Under the pieces are notes generated by a model that saw nothing but the letters and a program-made list of their open reading frames with translations, searched no databases and was not told the origin of the DNA. A stretch of 64,000 bases of DNA from Phyllosticta citribraziliensis (Eukaryota), in assembly GCF_038025025.1 (NCBI RefSeq), contig NW_027117350.1, positions 1,178,001-1,242,000 of the forward strand, written 5' to 3'. The translations under genes were made by a program, and so were the position numbers. Each line of letters begins with the position of its first letter. Within the stretch, counting starts at the first letter, position 1. Shown here piece by piece: positions 10,915 through 52,275 of the stretch.

Positions 10915-13900
10915 TCAAACGCCACGTAGATGTTCCAGCGCCAAATCGCGCATCTCTTCCACGTCTGCGCCCAAAGCAGAACACTGGTGTTGCAAAAGAG
11001 CGTCCAAACGGCGGACCAGGTTCTCGTACTGCCGCTCTGGGTCCAACAGAGCCTCGACAGCCTGCAGTAGCATGCTCTGCAGTATCCTGACCAGGGTCTC
11101 TGAGACACGATCCGTGTCGTACTCGAAACGGACCGACAGGCGGTCGGCAAAAACATGCCACTCAAAAAGCACGCCAAACTTAGCGCCTTCGGTCCAGACG
11201 TGCAGAGGGCGCGCTCCCTCGACAGGGAAAATGGACTCCTCCGTCCCGCGGTCATCATGGAAAGTGACGACACAGTCGAAGAGCTGCTGACGGTGTGACG
11301 GAAAGGGCAGGCCGAGGTGCTTGAGCAACCGTGGCCACGGCTCGGCGTGAGCCAGTGAGCTCTGCGACGCGCATTGCACGCTACGCAGCACGTCCATCGA
11401 TGTTATTGTCGAGTGTTGCGGCTCCGCCTTGACCCGAACAGGTAAGGCTTGGAGGAATAGCCCAACCACCTTTTGGTCGTCGACGGACGTCCGGTTCGCG
11501 TACGGGCTGCCGAGCACCACATCCCTCCGGCCGCAAAGCGCATGCAGCACTACCCCCGTTGCAGCAAGACCGAACTGGTGGAGTGTCAGGCCATTGGCTG
11601 TAGTTAACGCGAGGATGCCGTGGTAGAGCTCCTTGGGCACGGGAAGCAGCAGCGAAGTGCCTCTGTACGACTTTTGCCAGGTCCGCCGGCCACCGCAGCC
11701 GTCGTGCTCAAGCTCTGGGCGCCGGAGCTGCAGGCCGTGTAGATTGGAAGCCCAGAAGAAAGCGCTCTCTACCTCGGTCGGCTGGTTCCATGCGGTGCTG
11801 TCAAAGTAGTCGCGCTGCAATAGCGGCAGCTCGCCGCCGTTGAAAATCGTGGCAACCTCGGCCAGCAACGTCTGCAGTGCCGTGAGGTCGCATATGATGT
11901 GTGAGATGGTAATGGCCAAGATTGACGGCGACAGCACCACCCGAACCAACACGTCCTTGCTGAGGTCGAAGGGCTGGTTGACGAAGGCTCGGACGTTGAT
12001 CGAGTCAACCACATGCACCTTGATCGGCTCATCCACCATGACGCGCTCGACTCGACCATCCCCAACGTCCATGAAGCGCGAGCGCAGGATTCGATGCCGG
12101 TTCATGACCGTCTCAACCGCGCCGACGAGCCGCTGCAGGTCTATTCCGGGCTGTAGCTCCGCCACCCACGGGACGTTGAACGCGCACGCGCTTTCCGAGT
12201 CACGGTAACGGTGCCACCATTCGAGCTCAGCTGGCGATAGCTTCCTGGTATCCAATCGCGTAGCCTGCAATCTAGCCTGCGGCCGTGTCTTGCGGCTTCG
12301 TACCCGCATCTCCACGACGGCGGCCAAGTCGGCGAGCGTTGGCGCCATGATGACGTCCCTGACCAAGAGTGGGATCTCACAGACGCTTCGCAGACGAGCC
12401 GCTAACTTGAGCTGCAGGACTGAGTGTCCGCCCAGTGCTGTGAAGCTGTCGTCGGGCGACAGGCCAACCAAAGAGTCCAATCCAAGCAGCAGGCGCCATT
12501 CCTGCGCGATGAGCGCCTCAAAACGGGTCAGGCCGAGCGCCTCGCCGCTCTTCATACCAGCAGCACAGGGCGGCTCGAAGACGGCCGCCTGTTGCGCCAG
12601 CGCCTTTGCGTCAAGCTTCCCGTTGCGAGACATCGGCAGACGCTGCATGGCCGTAATTTGCTTGGGCTGGGCGTGTTGGGGTAGCGCGCGGTGCAGTCGG
12701 CGTGCCAGCTCCTCCGTGTCGACGTCTTCGGGCTCGATCCACAGTACAAGCTTGCCATTGTGCTCCGTAGCCACGGCCTTGCGCACAGCGGGTGCCATTT
12801 CGCGCACCGCGACGGCTCCGACATCGTCCAGGTTGATGCGGAAGCCACGCATCTTGATCTGCCTATCGCGACGCCCGCACACATGCACATTGCCAGCCGC
12901 ATCCCAGAAGCCCACGTCGCCGGTGCGGTACATGCGCTCTTCCGGGAGTGTCGGGCAAAAGAGGTCGGGTAGGAACTCGCGTGCCGTTTGGGCGGGCATG
13001 TTGATGTATCCGCGAGAAACTTGGACGCCGGCGATGAAGATGTGGCCAATGACGCCGGGTGGCGCCAGCTCCATACGGTCGTCCAGTATGTACAGCCGCG
13101 TGGAGGGGACGGGCGGGCCGACGTTGACTGGTATGCCTGCCCGCAGCTTCTGCTGGCAGGCCCCGATCGTCCCCTATCATACAGTGAGTACGCTAAACCC
13201 CCATATCCTGTGGAGACAACATACCTCGGTTGGACCATACAAGTTATACAGCGTCCTTCCAACTGCCCATTTATCCAATGTTGTCTGTTGCACGGGCTCG
13301 CCGGCAAAATAAACCTGGAAGGCCAATTCATTACCACTTGCTCAAAGGAGAAGGATTGCGAAGGGAAAAGAGAAACATGGAGAACGTACGTATTTGAGAT
13401 TGGGGTAATCGCTTGGATCCAGCCCTGCAGCGACAGACGGCGTCATCATGGCGACATCTACATCTCCCAGATGGGAGAACGGATTTTGTGGTTCCTTTCT
13501 GAGTACGAGCGTTGCGCCATAGCAAAGGGACGCAAACACCTCGTGCACGCAGCCATCGAAGCCCGGCGACAAGAATTGCGCGATGCGAACTCCCGGTGCA
13601 CTGTTGAGTCGTATCTCGAGGTCAGAATGGAAGGCCGTGACACCTCCGTGCTCGCATACGACACCTTTTGGAAGTCAGCTGCAATTCAAAAGAAAGTAAG
13701 TTGGTGCTCACCTTTTGGCTTGCCAGTTGAGCCCGAGGTAAAGCAGAGGAATGCGGCATCTCTGCTATGCTGGAGCCTCGGTGCAGACAAAGACGGCTGT
13801 ACATTACTGGCGAGAATCTGATCAATGGCCAGGGCAACGGGGCCACCCACCATGGGCTCCTGCAGCTGCGAGCTTTCGGTGCATAGCAACAGCGTCGCGC

Positions 13901-16900
13901 CACTGTTCCGCAGCAGATCAGCGCGGTACTCGGCCGCGTGAGAGGCGTCGATAGGGCAGTACACGGCACCGGCCTTGAGGGCAGCGCATACGCCTACGAT
14001 CCAGTTGATGGAGCGGTCTGATACGACGCAGACAACGTCTCCAGGTTTGACGAGTTTCTCAGCGACAGCTGCAACCCTCGATGAGCCCGCCATCAGCTCG
14101 CCATAGGTCAGCCTGGCCTCGCCTCTCTCCACAGCAACCAGGCCGGCATTGGCACGTGCGGCCTCTTCGATGAGGCTCGTGACGGTCGGCCCGGACTTGC
14201 GTACGTAGGTGGCGGGAGAGTCGTGGTTGCCGCGGGCCAGCAACTTGCGCGAGATACCATGGTCCAAACGCCGGCTTAGGCACTCCTGCAAGCTGAGGTC
14301 CGGCTGTGTGACGGCGTGCAGTAGGTTTCGATACACGACTGCCATTTGCCTGATGTCGTTGTCGGCGAACGCGTCGCGGCGGTACAAGAAACGCACCGTT
14401 CCGTCGCCTTCGACAAGCACATTCAGTGGTAGGCCCGGTGCCTCCTTGACGATCGGTGGCCGCAAAGGCTTGATGGAAGCGTGTTGCAGTGTAGGTGCGT
14501 CGAACTGGATGGCGAGGGCGGAGGAGAAGCGCAGTGGCTGGCCCTTTCGCTCGACGGCCTGGAACTTGGACAGAGCTTGCACGGCGCGGTACATGTCCCG
14601 GAAAAAGGAGGCAGCCGACCCGCCATCCCGATCGACGGCGATGCGCAGTGGCTGTGTGCTGATGAGAGGGCCGACGATGCTGTCGGCTCCATCGAACCCC
14701 AGACTCCTCGCCGAGACGACAGCGCCGAAGAGCACCGCATCCGAGTTGGAGTAGCTGGAAAGGACGAGCGCCCACGCTGCGTAGTGGAAGGCTGCGGGAG
14801 TTGTGCGGAGGGTTCGGGCGCGTTTGGTCAGGGCCGCAACGTCAAGGCCTATCTGCAACGAGTGCTCAGCGTGGACGGCACTGCCATGCGAAGGCTTTGG
14901 GAGCAGCATTTCTCCTGCGGCATTGGGGATGGCTCTGTCCTGCTGTCGCCAGAAGATGTCGGCTTCAATGGCCGTCCGCGTGGCAAACGCATGCAGACTT
15001 TCGACGGCGACGGGGAAGGGTGGAGACTGTTCGAATGTTTGGCCATCCAGGGCGGCAGACAGCTTGTTCAGAATCAGTGACGCGGAGAAGCCATCAATCA
15101 GGGCGTGGTGAATGGAGAAAATGACGATGCTTTCGGCGTCCGGACCGTGCAGCGCGGTGAAACAGGCACCCAGCCCAGCGGCGGCAGCGGCTTCGTCAGT
15201 CCTCTGCTCTACGTCGTCCTGCGAAGCCACTTCATACTCGCTCCATCGGAATGGCGCTTCGGCACCGATTTGCTGCGTCTGGGAGTCAACGTCCAGCTCG
15301 GTGCGGAAAATGGGCTCCACTGCTACCACGGTCCGCCAAGCAGCCCGCAAGTGCGGAATGTCAGCTGTGCGGTATGTGGCCATGTGCTGTACGACATTTG
15401 CCTTCTTTTGCTGGAGGGACTCGAAGACGAGAGCCTTTTGAAGCGTTGTCAGAGGGCCCTCTGATACCATTCGGCTTGCGCTGGGCCTCTTTGAGATGTC
15501 CGGCGTCCTGCTGCAGACCTGAAGCAGACTGTTGATTGAGGGAGCAGTGAGTATGTCTTCGACGCGGACGGCAAAACCAAGCCGTCGACAGTGCGAAGAC
15601 AGCATGACGGCTGCAAGCGAGTGCAGGCCCTGGCTGACAAAAGGTTGGTCCACGTCAATTGTGCATGTTGGCACGTCAAGAATACGAGCCATGCCGCTGA
15701 CTATGGCAGACTTGAGGTCTTTAGGATCCTCAGCAACATCCTCGTTGGCATCCTCGGCGCTAGGTACGGCGGCTTTCAGTACTTCGGTCAATTTTCGTGG
15801 GTCGACTTTGCTGCTGGGGGTTGTCGGTAGTGATTTCAGTCCCACGATGTAGTCAGGCACAAGATATGCTGGGACCTTGGCCATCAACAAACATCTCAAA
15901 GCCTTCGGGTCGTCAACAGGCGGGGACACGGCGGTGCAGAGTTTCCTTCCAATCAACACCGAATGTGCCGCCTTCAGTCTCTTGTCCATGGCCAGGATTG
16001 CCGCATCCACGTCGAGCTCGAGATTGACCAGGAACCCTCGGATCTTGACTGTTCGATCGCGCCGTCCACAGAATTCGATGACCCTCCCTCCGTCCTCGCT
16101 GGCGCTCCACCTCACGACGTCTCCTGTTCTGTATGCGCGTTTTCGATTGTGGATGATGAATTTTTCGTCTGTTCGCCGCTCGTCGCGCCAGTATCCCCGG
16201 GCCAATCCCTTGCCAAAGATCAGCAGCTCTCCTTCTTCACCAAGGGTGTCAATGTCATCCCCGTTGTCGTCCACAATCGCTACTCTGGCGCCGCCAATAG
16301 CAGTTCCAAGGATGGTCGGTCTGAACTCGCCACTCTCGGGACACCTTGGCACAACACCACTCAGAGTTGCGCAAGTTGCTTCAGTTGGTCCGTATGCGAT
16401 CCATATTGGCCTCTTCAAAACACTCCAGGACTCCAAGAGCCTTTTGGAGGGCGTTTCGCCGCCGAGAACTATCCTGTCGAGGCACGGGTAATCGCAAGGT
16501 AACGAGGGCGCCTCCAGAGCCTCGAGGATGGATGGTGTAGCGACGAGGACGCTGCACCGGTAAGTTTGCTGCTGCAGATTCGATCGGTTGGCAAGGACGA
16601 CGGTTCCGCCATTGCAAAGAGTGTTGAACAATGTTCCCATGCACGCTGACTCGGCATTAGTTTCTGCCGGAATCTGCCACGAACCCGGACGCTCGACTCA
16701 CCATCAAACGCCACGGAAAGTACGAGTAGCACTCGATCGTCAGGGGTTACGTTGTAGTTGAAAGGAGGCGTCGTCACGAAGTTGGCCAACGATTCGTGCC
16801 GTATCTCGACGCCTTTGGGCTCGCCTGTCGTGCCGGAGGTGAAGATGATGGTTGCCAAGTCCGGGAGGAACTCTTCTTCTCTGTCATCGTTCTGATTTTG

Positions 16901-17296
16901 TTCGTTTTCCTCGTCTTCCACATTCACCATGACCGTGTCGGGAATCTTCATCCGTTTTCCGGTATAGACGGCAAGCCCGGAGCAAGTCCTGCCCAGAACA
17001 TTGTCAATTCGTTCCCGCGGCCACTGGTCGCGGTCTACGGGCACATAGGTTGCTCCCGCCTTCAGTATGCCTAGCACTCCGACTACCATGTGCAGACAGG
17101 AGCTCGTGAGTATGGGAATCACGCAGGACGGGCGTGCTCCGGCTTGTCGCAACCGCCGGGCGAGGGACGACGACCGCTTGTCCAAAGCGCGGTACGTGAG
17201 AGTTTCGTGGCCATCCTGCACAGCAATGTTGTCCGGGTAATGCTTGCAGATGTTCTGGAAGAGTGCAAGCACAGTTGGAGAAAGCTTGCGAATCAT
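10915..17296 (-). CDS. gliP: Two-module NRPS, GliP/SirP-like diketopiperazine synthetase (A-T-C-A-T-C)
   Basis: A1: FTSGTTGEPKG, YGPTE, YRTGD, GRRDRTVKIRGFLVNL. T1 'GLHSL'; C1 'HHALIDG'. A2: FTSGSTGKPK, YRTGD, GRRDRQIKMRGFRINL. T2 'GGHSV'; terminal C 'SHIICD'. Several short introns at about 13170-13720 and 16645-16700. Confidence 0.93.
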
Positions 17297-17456
17297 GGCG
17301 AAGGTTTGAGGCTGGTATGGTGGTGAACCAACGGCTGCATGTCACTGCTAGCCGCATACACCCTATTTAACACAAGGTTGCAGCCAACGCCTTGTTCCAG
17401 ATAAACTTGAATTCCAGGCTGGGAAAGTGATTGGCAGGAACGACGCGGCTCTTTGG

Positions 17457-32320: not shown

Positions 32321-32927
32321 ATGCCTTTGAACACCAGTAAGTGCATCGCATCATTACCAGCGAACAGATAATGAACGCGTGCTAGATCAACACCAAGTCC
32401 ATACTGCACGGCAAGAGCAGCTGCAAGACTCGGCTCGACGCGGGCTTTCGTCGTACGCCAAAGCAGATCCAGAACTTCCATGGATACTGGCCTTCTACGC
32501 GTCAATCATCATCAGCTTTCTCCAGCTAGCATGCTTCGTCGCCACGGCCTTCTGCCTCTGCAGGGCCGTTAGAGACGACATCAAGCTGGCAGAATTCCAA
32601 GTCGCAATCGACGCGCTGGCCAAGAAGATCAAGTGCTCCGCGGACTACTTTGAATACGGCTGCGACGGACCGCGCATGCCTGCGATGGAGAACGGGTGCA
32701 TGATTTGGGAGCTGTGCATGAAGAAGGATGTAAAGATGCCACAACTCAGCAGCGCGCGCGCGATGGCCATCGTGATCAGCTCTTTTGCCGGGTCCATCTC
32801 GTTCAAGACCTTGGCCATGTGGGTAGTCGCCGGCGGCCTTAATCTTGTCCTTCTACGTTATCTCGACAGCCCTCCTTTCACGGCTCCCCGTCGACAAATG
32901 GCTGGCAGCCGCTGTTGGAAGTGCTGA
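32321..32927 (+). CDS. Brr6/Brl1-domain nuclear envelope protein (short, divergent), 2 exons
   Basis: ATG at 32321; intron 32337-32385 restores frame. TM helix, 'VRDDI', four-Cys loop C-SADYFEYG-C..MPAMENG-C-MIWEL-CM, then 'ARAMAIVISSFAGSISFKT' and a second TM helix. Confidence 0.8.
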
Positions 32928-49396: not shown

Positions 49397-50327
49397 CTAG
49401 GAGGTTTGTGAAAGGCGGTCCGAGGCGGGTATGCTCAAATTCCAGTCTGTCTTCTGCCCCGTGCGGTCCATTTCCGCCGACGCCTGCTGCAGCACCGCCT
49501 CGAGCACTTGGCAGAGGCGCCTGCTCTGAACCCCCGCGTCTCTGGTGAGAGCCGTCTCTGTCTGTCGGAGCTGGAAGCTCTGTGCGTCGAGTGCGGCCGC
49601 GAGCGTATTTGCTGTGTCCGCGTCCACTTGTCTTGTTGGCCGCGACAGCGCGAGCGTGTAGCTCCAGCTCGCCGCCACATGGCGTCCTCGGAGGCGCTGG
49701 TGACTTTGGGGAGCTTCACCGAAAGCGGCGACAGCTGCGGGGCAGTGTTGTGCTTTGAGCCAATCTTCTTTGGTTGGATGTGCTCCGCGTGTTTTGGCAG
49801 GGCGCCATTGCTGAGCTCTGGGGGGCCGGAGATCCACTCGTGAATGAGGAAGAGAAGAGGCACAATGCGACACAGGCAAGCCTGCCTATCAAGCACTGCT
49901 GGAGCCGAAGCCGCGTGAGGTAGACCGCATGGGCTGCGAGCTGGTGTGGAAATTGTGAGAGCCGAACGAGGCCTGGCGCGCCTGCGGCGCTGGGTACCGC
50001 GCGTACAGATGCTTCTTGGCCGGGGACAGGTGAGGTCTGCAATGCTCGTCTGCGAGGCACCCGTGCGGGCGCCAAGCGGACCTGAAGTGCTTCGGACCTC
50101 CTGTGGTGTGCCGGGTGTAGGCGTAGCAGTGTGGGCGTGCGACGGTTGTGGCAGTACTCCAGAGTCGCCTTTTGGCATTCTTGGTCGGGCTGAGAAGTTG
50201 GGGCAGTACTTTCGATGACGCGAGCGTTGTCGGGCTCGATGAGGCGCTGCAGTTCGGCGAGATGGTGCGCGAGTTCTGGCGGCGGCAGCGAAGACGTATG
50301 GTGGTGGTGGTGGTGGTGGGCCGTCAT
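49397..50327 (-). CDS. Hypothetical (possibly disrupted) gene divergently transcribed from the CenH3-like gene
   Basis: ATG at 50327 (MTAHHHHHHH..), continuing into the helical ORF that ends at 49397. Exon structure uncertain; no family recognised. Confidence 0.35.
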
Positions 50328-50635
50328 GGTCGTTTCGGTCGAGGATGATGGCCTGGGGCGACGACCGTGTGAGCGTCGAGCATGACGCGCAAGCAAGCGA
50401 GAAGATGAAGTGGCAAGGAAATGCACAGGAAGTGTGACACGGAGTGAGGGAGTGAGGGTAGACGCAGATGGATGGACGGACGAAGAAAACGACAAACCTA
50501 CCGACATGTACAGGCTGGCACCTGCGGCTTGTTTGCTCCATGCCTGAGGCCGAGAGCGACGACGACGATTGTCTACATATTTAGTTTCTTGGACCTTCAT
50601 CAACCTCTTTCGATCCTCCATCCACTCAATCAAAA

Positions 50636-51148
50636 ATGGCACGATCCAAGCTCGGGAAGCCGTCGAAACGAAGCCTCTCACAGCGTATGTCCGACAACAC
50701 CACAGCCAACACACTGCACATTGCTGACACACAGTTCGCACGCGCAGCTGGCGACCCCACCCCTCGGCCGCCGGTCAGGCGTCGCAAGTCCAGTGCCGTT
50801 GCCATCAGGGAAATCAAAGCATGCCAAAAGTCGACCGACCTCTGCCTGCGCAAGCTGCCCTTCTCCCGCCTGGTCAGTATGCCACAGACACAGCCACACA
50901 CACATACACACAACTGACCAACACGGTACCAGGTGCGGGAGATTGCTCAAGCAATGACGGATGGCGCCAGCGGGGTGACGCGGTGGCAGGTCAAGGCGTT
51001 GGAAGCGCTGCAGGAGGCGGCCGAGGCGTACCTGGTCGGTGTGATGGAGGACACCAATTACTGCGCCCAGCATGCCCGTCGCCAGACTATCAAGCAGGTT
51101 GACATGCAGTTGGCGAGACGGATCCGCGGTCGGTTTGAGGCCCATTAA
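50636..51148 (+). CDS. Divergent centromeric histone H3 variant (CenH3/CENP-A-like), 3 exons, 129 aa
   Basis: Exons 50636-50684, 50748-50872 and 50933-51148 give [129 protein letters not shown]. Confidence 0.85.
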
Positions 51149-51393
51149 CAGTAATTCCGTCCGCGGCAGCGGCACAACATACATTGGTTGATTGGATAGA
51201 GACAAACCGACAGGGGAGAGGGAAGCTCTACAGGAAGGAGAGGAGGCTTGCGGCCGTCGAAGATGGGGATAAGCACTGAATTCATGCAGATTGACGTGCG
51301 CTGTGTGTGCTTTAGCTTCTTGTGTGAATCTGCCCAATGTCATTGAATGTAGTAGTATCAGCAGACTAACCCAGACATATGACTCGCCACTAC

Positions 51394-52275
51394 CTAAGCA
51401 AGCTCGTCCTCTCCGTCCTCCTCATCATCATCATCATTATCATCATCATCGTTCAGCTTCTTCACCAGCCGGTTGTACTGGGTAATGGCCATTGCCTCAG
51501 AAACTCCCAGCTCTTCCGCAATGCCTTTGAACTTGAATCCTTTGCGGCGTTGGCCCAGGAGGTGGTCCTTTTCGGCCTGGGTCCATCTTCGGTATGATTG
51601 ACTGTCGCCACCGGTGGCCGAGCGACCCTTCTGGACGTCGTAGAATCGTTGCCTCGCTGCTTGCAGCGTGCGCCCGGGCATGTGCGCTGGAACAATCTCT
51701 GCCCACGGCACCTTCTTGTCCCGCAGCTCTTTCATCCTCGCGTCCTCCTCGGGGGTCCAATTGCCAAATTTCAGGGCGCTGGCGTCGATGGGTTCGATGC
51801 CTTCCTTGGTTGTTGTCGTGATGGCGGGCCGAATCGGCACATTTGTTGTTGTCCTTGATTCGGAAGAGTGAGTATGAAGCATGTCAACAACAATCGACCC
51901 TTGGTGAACTTACTCGTGCTTGTCCTCTTCTTCTGCCTCGACATGACTGTCCATCCTCTCCTCGTCCTCCTCGTCGTCCTCTTCGCCCTCCTCTGCCTCC
52001 AGCGTGTCGTCCATCCTTTCCTGCGGGGTTTCATCTTGACTGCAAGCGTCATCCCAAGCCAGAGCGGCGAACGGCCCCTCCTCCGGGTAATCTTCCATGC
52101 CTGCAAGGTACCCGTGGTCTTGCACCAGATCGCCAGTCGCCAAATCCACCACGTCGTCTGCGCCGTCACCGTCGTCTCGCGCATACTTTGCGAGGAAAGC
52201 GTCGGTGAAAATAGCATCTGCCCATGCTGGCGGCAGCAGCGGTGATGGCGCTGCGGCCTGGTCGTGGGGAGGCAT
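51394..52275 (-). CDS. Scm3/HJURP-domain CenH3 chaperone fused to two Myb/SANT repeats, 2 exons, about 273 aa
   Basis: Exon 52275-51914 has 'FLAKYARDDGDGADDVVDLATGDLVQDHGYL' (Scm3-like KY..D.IDL.TGEIV.DNGHL) and an acidic tract. Intron 51854-51913 keeps frame. Exon 2 has 'WTPEEDARMKELRDKKVPWAEIVPAHMPGRTLQAARQRF' and 'WTQAEKDHLL..KFKGIAEELGVS'. Confidence 0.78.

Follow-up and report, generated by a model that had tools for sequence, protein, structure and literature searches.

The window analyzed here is a 64,000-nt stretch of contig NW_027117350.1 of Phyllosticta citribraziliensis (all coordinates below are window positions), and our subject within it is a histone gene of three exons and two introns that occupies 50636-51148 of the plus strand, with its ATG at 50636. 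This gene is probably a second, lineage-specific paralog of the centromeric histone H3 (CenH3), which we call CenH3-2, and not the CenH3 ortholog of the species; that it is a functional, diverged CenH3 paralog is very likely. Its parts are the following:

50636-50684, plus strand: histone exon 1, 16 codons and the first base of a Pro codon, encoding the short N-terminal tail; joined and covered in the contig of public run X1
50685-50747, plus strand: histone intron 1, 63 nt, GT..AG, phase 1 within the Pro codon of QPGDP, with a CTGAC branch site near 50723; absent from the X1 contig
50748-50872, plus strand: histone exon 2, encoding the end of the tail, helix αN and helix α1 up to ...LPFSRL; Pfam Histone
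50873-50932, plus strand: histone intron 2, 60 nt, GT..AG, phase 0, between L58 and V59 (...FSRL / VREI...)
50933-51148, plus strand: histone exon 3, encoding the end of α1, loop 1, α2, loop 2, α3 and the RFEAH tail, with TAA at 51146-51148; Pfam Histone, E 3.3e-18

X1 is one of three public runs that cover the stretch (X1, X2 and X3), none of which is recorded as RNA; X1 and X3 are labeled RNA by guess only, and contig depth says nothing on expression level. The species record identifies the organism as P. citribraziliensis, a Dothideomycete (order Botryosphaeriales), and the Sordariomycetes, which an earlier note on this DNA had named as the group for comparison, are accordingly the wrong one.

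Identity of the histone

The joined exons translate letter for letter into P0005, a 129-aa protein annotated as 'histone H3 [Phyllosticta citribraziliensis]', which is on record from three contigs under four accessions, with the same protein on all, and is the sole member of its 90% cluster. It belongs to the H3-type histone fold, matching the Pfam family Histone (PF00125) with an E-value of 1.8e-30 and 106 bits. The solved structures nearest to exon 3 by sequence are those of the centromeric histones Cse4 (2l5a, 2yfw) and Cnp1 (9lrv), at E 3e-21 to 2e-17 and narrowly before H3. A search of representative proteins with the same exon gave 7202 at E <= 0.001, the best rows being multi-histone fusions and the closest at most 73% identical. 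An AlphaFold2 monomer model of P0005, of low confidence (mean predicted local distance difference test score 64.8, predicted template modeling score 0.33), places helices at 31-44, 47-67, 74-107 and 113-128. No other histone gene was found in the 64-kb window.

The features to which the earlier note had drawn attention, namely a QPGDP motif split by an intron, LPFSRL, RWQ, a longer loop 1, a MARSK start and an RFEAH end, are all present on re-reading. Several of these are sequence marks of CenH3: loop 1 exceeds that of the H3 row by four residues, W76 stands at H3 F84, S56 stands in place of Q68, and the tail is unlike that of H3 after MAR. Conversely, P0005 has none of the conserved H3 tail, Q68, F84, short loop 1 and ERA end that distinguish canonical H3 and H3.3.

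A second copy beside a canonical CenH3

P. citribraziliensis has a canonical CenH3 of its own, P0242 (155 aa; also P0244), and both records fall in the cluster of P0127 from P. citrichinensis. The two species are called each other's closest relatives (PMC9073689). P0242 and P0127 are identical at 154 of 155 positions, the sole difference being the last residue, whereas P0242 and P0005 share only 64% identity (73/114); P0005 is thus neither the single CenH3 of its species nor the near-identical counterpart of that of the sister species. The proteins nearest to P0005 are fungal CenH3s, none of which exceeds about 65% identity; they include those annotated as 'histone H3' from P. citrichinensis (P0127, 155 aa) and P. 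capitalensis (P0130, 156 aa). Among short proteins, the search with exon 3 recovered a closer relative, the 115-aa 'histone-fold-containing protein' P0393 of P. citrichinensis, which is 77% identical over this exon.

The canonical Phyllosticta CenH3s (P0242, together with P0127, P0130 and P0248 of sister species) have in common with P0005 the intron-split QPGDPTP, REIK, the α2 motif AY.VG, RWQ and the fold core. In contrast, about 40 substitutions separate P0005 from them, many at sites that are invariant in 103 other CenH3-like proteins; the residues before QP number 43 in the canonical form and 16 in P0005, the C-terminal end is AWGDA in the former and RFEAH in the latter, and loop 1 has one additional residue in P0005. 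The 103 proteins are the matches of 120-200 aa within P0128-P0239, not all of which carry a name, after removal by hand of P0129, P0140, P0149, P0199, P0220, P0229 and P0237 (plant, alga, animal and unnamed-eukaryote sequences). From such sequence comparisons, the canonical Phyllosticta CenH3 is very probably the parent gene of the paralog.

This comparison also recasts some of the traits that had been read as unusual. Both VG for VH and REIK belong equally to the canonical Phyllosticta CenH3, and the MARSK start does not make the tail H3-like, since MAR starts occur in the canonical CenH3 of Lophium, Teratosphaeria and Lecanosticta as well. The tail is better described as a shortened CenH3 tail, in which ...KRSLSQP aligns with ...KRRRSSGAQP. 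Loop 1 is indeed long when set against H3, but its excess over the species' own canonical protein is a single residue, and it resembles the SGVTRWQ loop of Teratosphaeria.

P0393 shares with P0005 the derived states R29, K79, L81, E82, Q104, R107, K112, M116, R125, F126 and E127. The two are 67% identical over 114 columns, against a single difference in 155 positions between the canonical CenH3s of their species. The annotated N-terminus of P0393 begins MAAGDP, and its first exon was probably missed in annotation.

Two further observations concern the size of the family. In run X2, a 288-nt contig of lower depth (14.5, compared with about 80) contains a third CenH3-like sequence, which has L81, E82 and Y101 as in the paralog clade but VH, as in other fungi, at the site of G94. 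In run X3, an exon 2 variant at low depth differs in length by one base. These extra contigs, which align to 50832-51033 and whose source organisms are uncertain, hint at further family members or broken copies.

Tree placement and origin by duplication

We computed a tree of 44 rows over 147 of 209 columns, comprising the two paralogs, 38 CenH3s and four H3-type sequences, among them P0264 truncated after residue 131. P0005 and P0393 group together with support 100/99 inside CenH3, and CenH3 is split from the four H3-type rows at 99/99. The stem of the paralog clade measures about 2.06 changes per column and its tips 0.60 and 1.46, against 0 to 0.05 for the four canonical Phyllosticta tips. 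The claim that the histone is CenH3-derived is thus upheld by its placement, by Cse4 and Cnp1 as its best solved relatives and by the CenH3 intron in QPGDP; a position among canonical H3-derived variants, which would have contradicted it, is not what the tree gives. Constraining the paralogs to group with the four canonical Phyllosticta CenH3s costs 4.8 log-likelihood units (approximately unbiased test, p = 0.12), so that this grouping is not rejected, which is not proof of it. A Phyllosticta-type parent is further indicated by rare states common to P0005 and its canonical CenH3, namely K40 (4/103), Y91 (9/103), G94 (1/103, with H in 102) and V95 (0/103); a caveat attaches to G94, in that the third CenH3-like contig of X2 has paralog states yet VH at that site.

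Gene structure bears on the same question. A tblastn search of metagenomes yielded 82 rows over 80 loci, of which 69 are H3-type (RFQ or RYQ), eight RWQ-type and five other, and six RWQ-type loci were used for comparison. The intron positions, whose comparison the earlier note had proposed, agree: in all five Pezizomycotina-type CenH3 loci (L001-L004 and L017) an intron sits where intron 1 does and in its phase, and the tblastn match starts exactly at GDP, preceded just upstream by a CTAAC branch site, AG and the two bases that complete the Pro codon. In the Mycosphaerellales-like CenH3 locus L079, an intron lies exactly between ...SRL and VREI..., as does intron 2 of the histone gene. Further, the alternative gene models on record for the canonical Phyllosticta CenH3 (P0240, P0241, P0243, P0244 and P0245) all diverge at QP|GDP. 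The histone gene hence has the structure of Pezizomycotina CenH3 genes, in which a phase-1 intron splits the QPGDP Pro codon. Because both ancestral introns were kept, it points to the duplication of a CenH3 gene at the DNA level, and retroposition is excluded as its origin.

Conserved core and altered surfaces

The fold core is retained: 33 columns are invariant across 42 sequences, including H105, D115 and L118, and I122 is nearly so, with V in P0393. The H3 residues H113, D/E123, L126 and I/L130 have been named as critical for the four-helix bundle (PMC4027189). Their counterparts in P0005 are H105, D115, L118 and I122 (H3 H113, D123, L126 and I130), so the retention of the bundle His and Asp that had been noted earlier holds and extends to two more positions.

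Around this core, the description of the protein as 'rewired' proves apt, as, at sites with little or no variation elsewhere, it carries states that none of the 103 other CenH3-like proteins has. The changes listed here, of which those written as substitutions are in H3 numbering and the others in that of P0005, concern states found in 0-2 of the 103. In αN, Y41R is common to both paralogs, and P43S, G44S, T45A, K53A, Y54C and L61C are specific to P0005. The start of α2 shows S86V, K79 and E82, and its end F104M, L109Y and I112Q; loop 2 and α3 show K115R, V117Q, M120K and K122V. At the C-terminus, A-W-G-D-A has become R-F-E-A-H (R125, F126, E127, A128 and H129), where W and G are each present in 94 of 99 other proteins and L/I/V follows in most. 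The hydrophobic tail of most fungal CenH3s (A/V-W-G-G-L/I-G) is accordingly lacking, with only its aromatic position kept. The C-terminal tail of CenH3 serves in binding CENP-C, and in nucleosomes generally αN lies at the DNA ends and the altered positions of loop 2 and α3 at the dyad.

The start of α2 deserves separate mention. In yeast, the αN helix of the chaperone Scm3 packs on 'Cse4-specific residues' (PMC4027189). When P0005 is aligned to the solved Cse4-Scm3-H4 chain 2l5a, two Met residues at the start of α2 of Cse4 fall opposite K79 and E82 of the paralog. These two Met residues are reportedly the Cse4-specific residues that face Scm3 (Zhou et al., 2011).

Splicing and present constraint

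The spliced form of the histone gene exists. In run X1, a single 5274-nt contig, 100% identical to the window, lacks precisely 50685-50747 and the 60-nt intron 2 (50872/3-50931/2), and its loose upstream end maps to 50322-50351, which adds a third skip, 50353-50501, reading CT..AC and corresponding to a minus-strand intron of the divergent neighbor. The contig fits a cDNA, because it has three skips of the spliceosomal GT..AG type on both strands. The 63-nt in-frame intron proposed earlier is therefore confirmed to the base, and the acceptor in use is that at 50747. The alternative acceptor upstream at 50734, whose use would have shifted the frame, is taken by no contig, and the copy in run X2 carries G>A at that site.

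Intron 1 is also open in frame, such that its retention would add 21 codons without a stop, and a 3-nt deletion there in the X2 copy preserves the frame; only the spliced form was seen. As for the divergent neighbor itself (49700-50640, minus strand), it has an ATG at 50328 and a stretch of seven consecutive His residues, matches no Pfam family and, according to the X1 contig, contains in its 5' leader an intron of 149 nt (50353-50501). As this contig continues into histone exon 1, the 5' ends of the two genes appear to overlap.

Run X2, which derives from a different organism, supplies unspliced contigs that are 90-99% alike over 50601-51400. Over 387 coding bases, the X2 copy differs from the histone gene at 12, or about 3%, six of them plainly synonymous, the amino-acid changes being S45T, G94S, V95I and H129Y; its introns have taken a 3-nt and an 8-nt deletion, and its frame and all four splice sites are intact. 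By the Nei-Gojobori method, with 95.3 synonymous and 291.7 non-synonymous sites and 7.5 synonymous (Sd) and 4.5 non-synonymous (Nd) differences, the rates are 0.083 per synonymous site (dS) and 0.016 per non-synonymous site (dN), giving dN/dS 0.19 (binomial P 0.0025, Fisher P 0.0022). This ratio and the intact frame imply that the gene is now constrained by purifying selection. The distance between P0005 and P0393 reflects either an earlier burst of change or older, separate paralogs. Repeat-induced point mutation (RIP) was considered as the cause of divergence and ruled out: the gene has a GC content of 0.63, third-position GC of 0.76, TpA/ApT of 0.27 and (CpA+TpG)/(ApC+GpT) of 1.54, with RIP indices within, or past the non-RIP side of, the window's own range.

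The neighboring Scm3-Myb gene

Beyond the stop codon of the histone gene lies a convergent gene on the opposite strand, the parts of which are:

51149-51393, no strand: spacer of 245 nt between the stop codons of the convergent genes, across which the X1 contig is unbroken
51394-51853, minus strand: exon 2 of the Scm3-like gene (P0511), with two Myb-like domains and an acidic tail; stop at 51394-51396
51854-51913, minus strand: predicted intron of the Scm3-like gene, 60 nt, GTAAGT...AAG, which removes an in-frame TAA; read from sequence only
51914-52275, minus strand: exon 1 of the Scm3-like gene (P0510), with the Scm3 domain followed by an acidic stretch; chosen start ATG at 52275-52273

The minus-strand open reading frame (ORF) 51913-52365 matches Pfam Scm3, and P0510 does so (PF10384) at E 2.1e-8 with a score of 34.1 bits (cut-off 24.3), the match spanning only positions 18-53 of the 53 in the profile. 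The P0511 exon matches Myb_DNA-binding at E 1.4e-6 and Myb_DNA-bind_6 at E 1e-5, both over their cut-offs. The neighbor thus has the makings of an Scm3/HJURP family protein, with an Scm3 domain above the gathering score and two added Myb-like, DNA-binding domains. Scm3 is the fungal CenH3 chaperone (PMC4027189), and Scm3 homologs with Myb domains are reported from fungi (PMC8997354). The X2 contigs reach 51400, which is consistent with the same neighborhood there. Assuming about ten thousand genes, we estimate the chance of adjacency to one given gene at about 1 in several thousand.

An Scm3 domain was found beside the canonical-type CenH3 in none of the six metagenome loci (150/153 ORFs of at least 80 aa; flanks of <1 kb to 6 kb), and linkage of CenH3 to Scm3 is therefore not general. 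A search of solved structures with P0510 returned a single chance match at E 0.082 and no chain of Scm3 or HJURP; by tblastn, P0510 had no match below E 0.26 in the 80 metagenome loci; and a protein atlas search with the Myb exon gave generic Myb clusters only, all with scores <0.9. A different gene, DER1-like, lies divergently upstream of CenH3 in three of the six loci (L001 2145-3042, L002 4095-4934 and L017 429-1569), an arrangement suggestive of conserved synteny; the scanned ORFs of the window contained no DER1 domain.

The wider window

The segment 600-22000 holds a secondary-metabolite gene cluster, recognized by Pfam matches of its ORFs, with two cytochrome P450s, an ATP-binding cassette transporter, an O-methyltransferase, a non-ribosomal peptide synthetase, an aminotransferase of class I/II and an oxidoreductase of the pyridine-nucleotide disulphide type. 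The synthetase is multi-module, with adenylation, thiolation and condensation (A-T-C) domains, and lies at 10918-17341 on the minus strand. The make-up of this cluster is suggestive of the epipolythiodioxopiperazine (gliotoxin/sirodesmin-type) clusters. In 24000-64000, besides the histone gene, the Scm3-Myb gene and a Brr6-like ORF (32331-32924), no scanned ORF of at least 150 aa matched Pfam. GC content and RIP indices are ordinary in this region, which seems rich in poorly conserved genes.

A proposed history and the alternatives

There is good support for the view that a CenH3 gene was duplicated at the DNA level with both introns carried along, and that the new copy lost about 27 residues of its N-terminal tail and diverged fast around a constant fold core. 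That the paralog makes a working protein is likewise supported by its spliced form in a public run together with the purifying selection acting today. Such a protein should still pair with H4 and could form the four-helix bundle and nucleosome-like particles. Four of its surfaces would differ: αN at the DNA ends, the start of α2 that is read by yeast Scm3 (K79 and E82), loop 2 and α3 at the dyad, and the C-terminal tail. Changes at these chaperone-facing, DNA-end, dyad and C-terminal surfaces predict a variant nucleosome with loading and kinetochore contacts unlike those of the canonical CenH3. The Scm3-Myb gene, 245 bp away and tail to tail, would be the obvious candidate loader, and an adjoining Scm3-domain gene makes the earlier suggestion of an orthogonal CenH3 more concrete.

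The steps of this proposal are not equally probable. That the paralog acts at centromeres as a specialized, for example stage-specific, CenH3 is a realistic possibility that we stop short of favoring, and its use of the neighboring Scm3-like protein is somewhat more tentative. Unlikely, in our estimate, is the strongest form of the idea, in which the Scm3-Myb gene itself arose by duplication, has diverged and loads the paralog alone, so that the two constitute a linked, private CenH3-Scm3 cassette and give the species two orthogonal deposition systems; the K79/E82 surface changes would then be matched by changes in the N-terminal helix of the chaperone.

Several points weigh against a functional second CenH3 of this kind. 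The annotated proteins of the paralog clade come from two sister species only, and P0005 and P0393 are possibly separate paralogs instead of orthologs. The place of their clade within CenH3 is a polytomy with long branches, for which the bootstrap is not fully settled. The evidence of splicing is one contig from one run whose RNA nature is guessed, and the selection test counts 12 differences only, in contigs of a run of unknown kind. P0005 is altered at G44, T45, L61, V117 and M120 (H3 numbers), which are identical in 103/103 others, and this could mean that normal nucleosome function was lost; the aromatic/hydrophobic tail is altered too, with W changed to F and GGL lost. Finally, the Scm3-like gene may be the sole Scm3 or a duplicate, and it is a candidate loader only.

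Some of these same features might instead signal a non-centromeric or regulatory derivative that has ceased to serve as a kinetochore foundation. It would act at other chromatin sites or, in line with the dominant-interfering variant suggested in the earlier note, as a decoy drawing H4 or Scm3 away from the canonical CenH3. The paralog has lost most of its N-terminal tail and the W-G-G/D-L/hydrophobic end found in about 94 of 99 other CenH3-like proteins, its dyad-facing residues are altered, and K and E now occupy the positions by which Cse4 reportedly faces Scm3. However, the aromatic F126 is kept at the W position, and RWQ, the loop and all core residues are still CenH3-like, and we regard such a derivative as rather unlikely. 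Purifying selection does not separate it from a centromeric role, and the linkage to an Scm3-domain gene would suit a deposited histone as well as a decoy.

That same selection does speak to the improbable case that the gene is a duplicate in decay, a young relic still transcribed and so far spared a disabling mutation. Its extreme divergence, invariant positions included, its narrow spread among annotated proteins and the exon 2 variant of X3, which could be a broken extra copy, would all suit a relic; a dN/dS of 0.19 (P 0.0025) would not, nor would an open frame and four splice sites kept in both copies while the introns took deletions of 3 and 8 nt, the identity of the protein on three deposited contigs, an intact sister paralog in P0393 and an untouched fold core. 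As for the reading of P0005 as the single, fast-evolving CenH3 ortholog of the species, CenH3s are known for fast evolution and the public record says just 'histone H3', but the canonical P0242 and P0244 of the same species, with accessions of their own and nearly identical across the genus, refute it barring mislabelled records. P. citrichinensis likewise has a paralog-clade member beside its canonical protein, and the probability left to a single ortholog is vanishingly small. A second, lineage-specific CenH3 thus remains our preferred account of the gene.

Comparison with known systems

CenH3 duplicates are on record from flies, mosquitoes, nematodes, plants and algae, and are usually explained by conflicts in asymmetric meiosis or by germline-versus-soma roles. 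By a finding cited in PMC12321929, positively selected CenH3 branches are met less often in clades whose meiosis is symmetric, fungi among them. Our literature searches found no lineage-specific CenH3 paralog in a filamentous fungus, and nothing for Phyllosticta combined with CenH3. The one fungal case to emerge, a Verticillium preprint that uses the phrase 'two CenH3', reportedly concerns a hybrid species. If the private cassette were real, it would be the first such CenH3-Scm3 pair in fungi, and would belong to a haploid lineage whose meiosis is symmetric and in which no centromere drive is expected. More generally, a fungal paralog that has diverged fast, is nonetheless constrained and lies by an Scm3-family gene offers a system in which to test how a histone-chaperone pair splits in two, and whether forces besides female meiotic drive diversify centromere proteins.

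Among characterized proteins, Cnp1 of fission yeast is similarly small, with a chain of 120 aa. In contrast to the paralog, however, both Cnp1 and Cse4 are the sole, essential CenH3 of their species, the structure 2l5a being that of Cse4 bound by Scm3.

A closer parallel is provided by the Cid paralogs of insects, in which a retained second CenH3 has a different N-terminal tail and different constraints, and where Anopheles keeps two copies of the chaperone CAL1 (Kursel, Welsh and Malik, 2020; PMC7306699). P. citribraziliensis likewise has a retained second CenH3 with a different tail, and the chaperone duplication of Anopheles is a model for the pairing of a histone with its loader. The differences are that the insects are animals with asymmetric female meiosis and that their chaperone belongs to the CAL1 family and not to that of Scm3. 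Moreover, the abstract of PMC7306699 states no physical linkage between the histone and chaperone genes, whereas in P. citribraziliensis the two genes are linked and it is the chaperone duplication that is only a candidate. The hcp-3L genes of Caenorhabditis (PMC9577544) offer a likeness of another sort, as these too are recurrent, lineage-restricted duplications of CenH3 in which the parental exon-intron structure was mostly kept. Those duplicates are described as short-lived and belong to holocentric nematodes; in contrast, at least two diverged members persist in the sister species of Phyllosticta.

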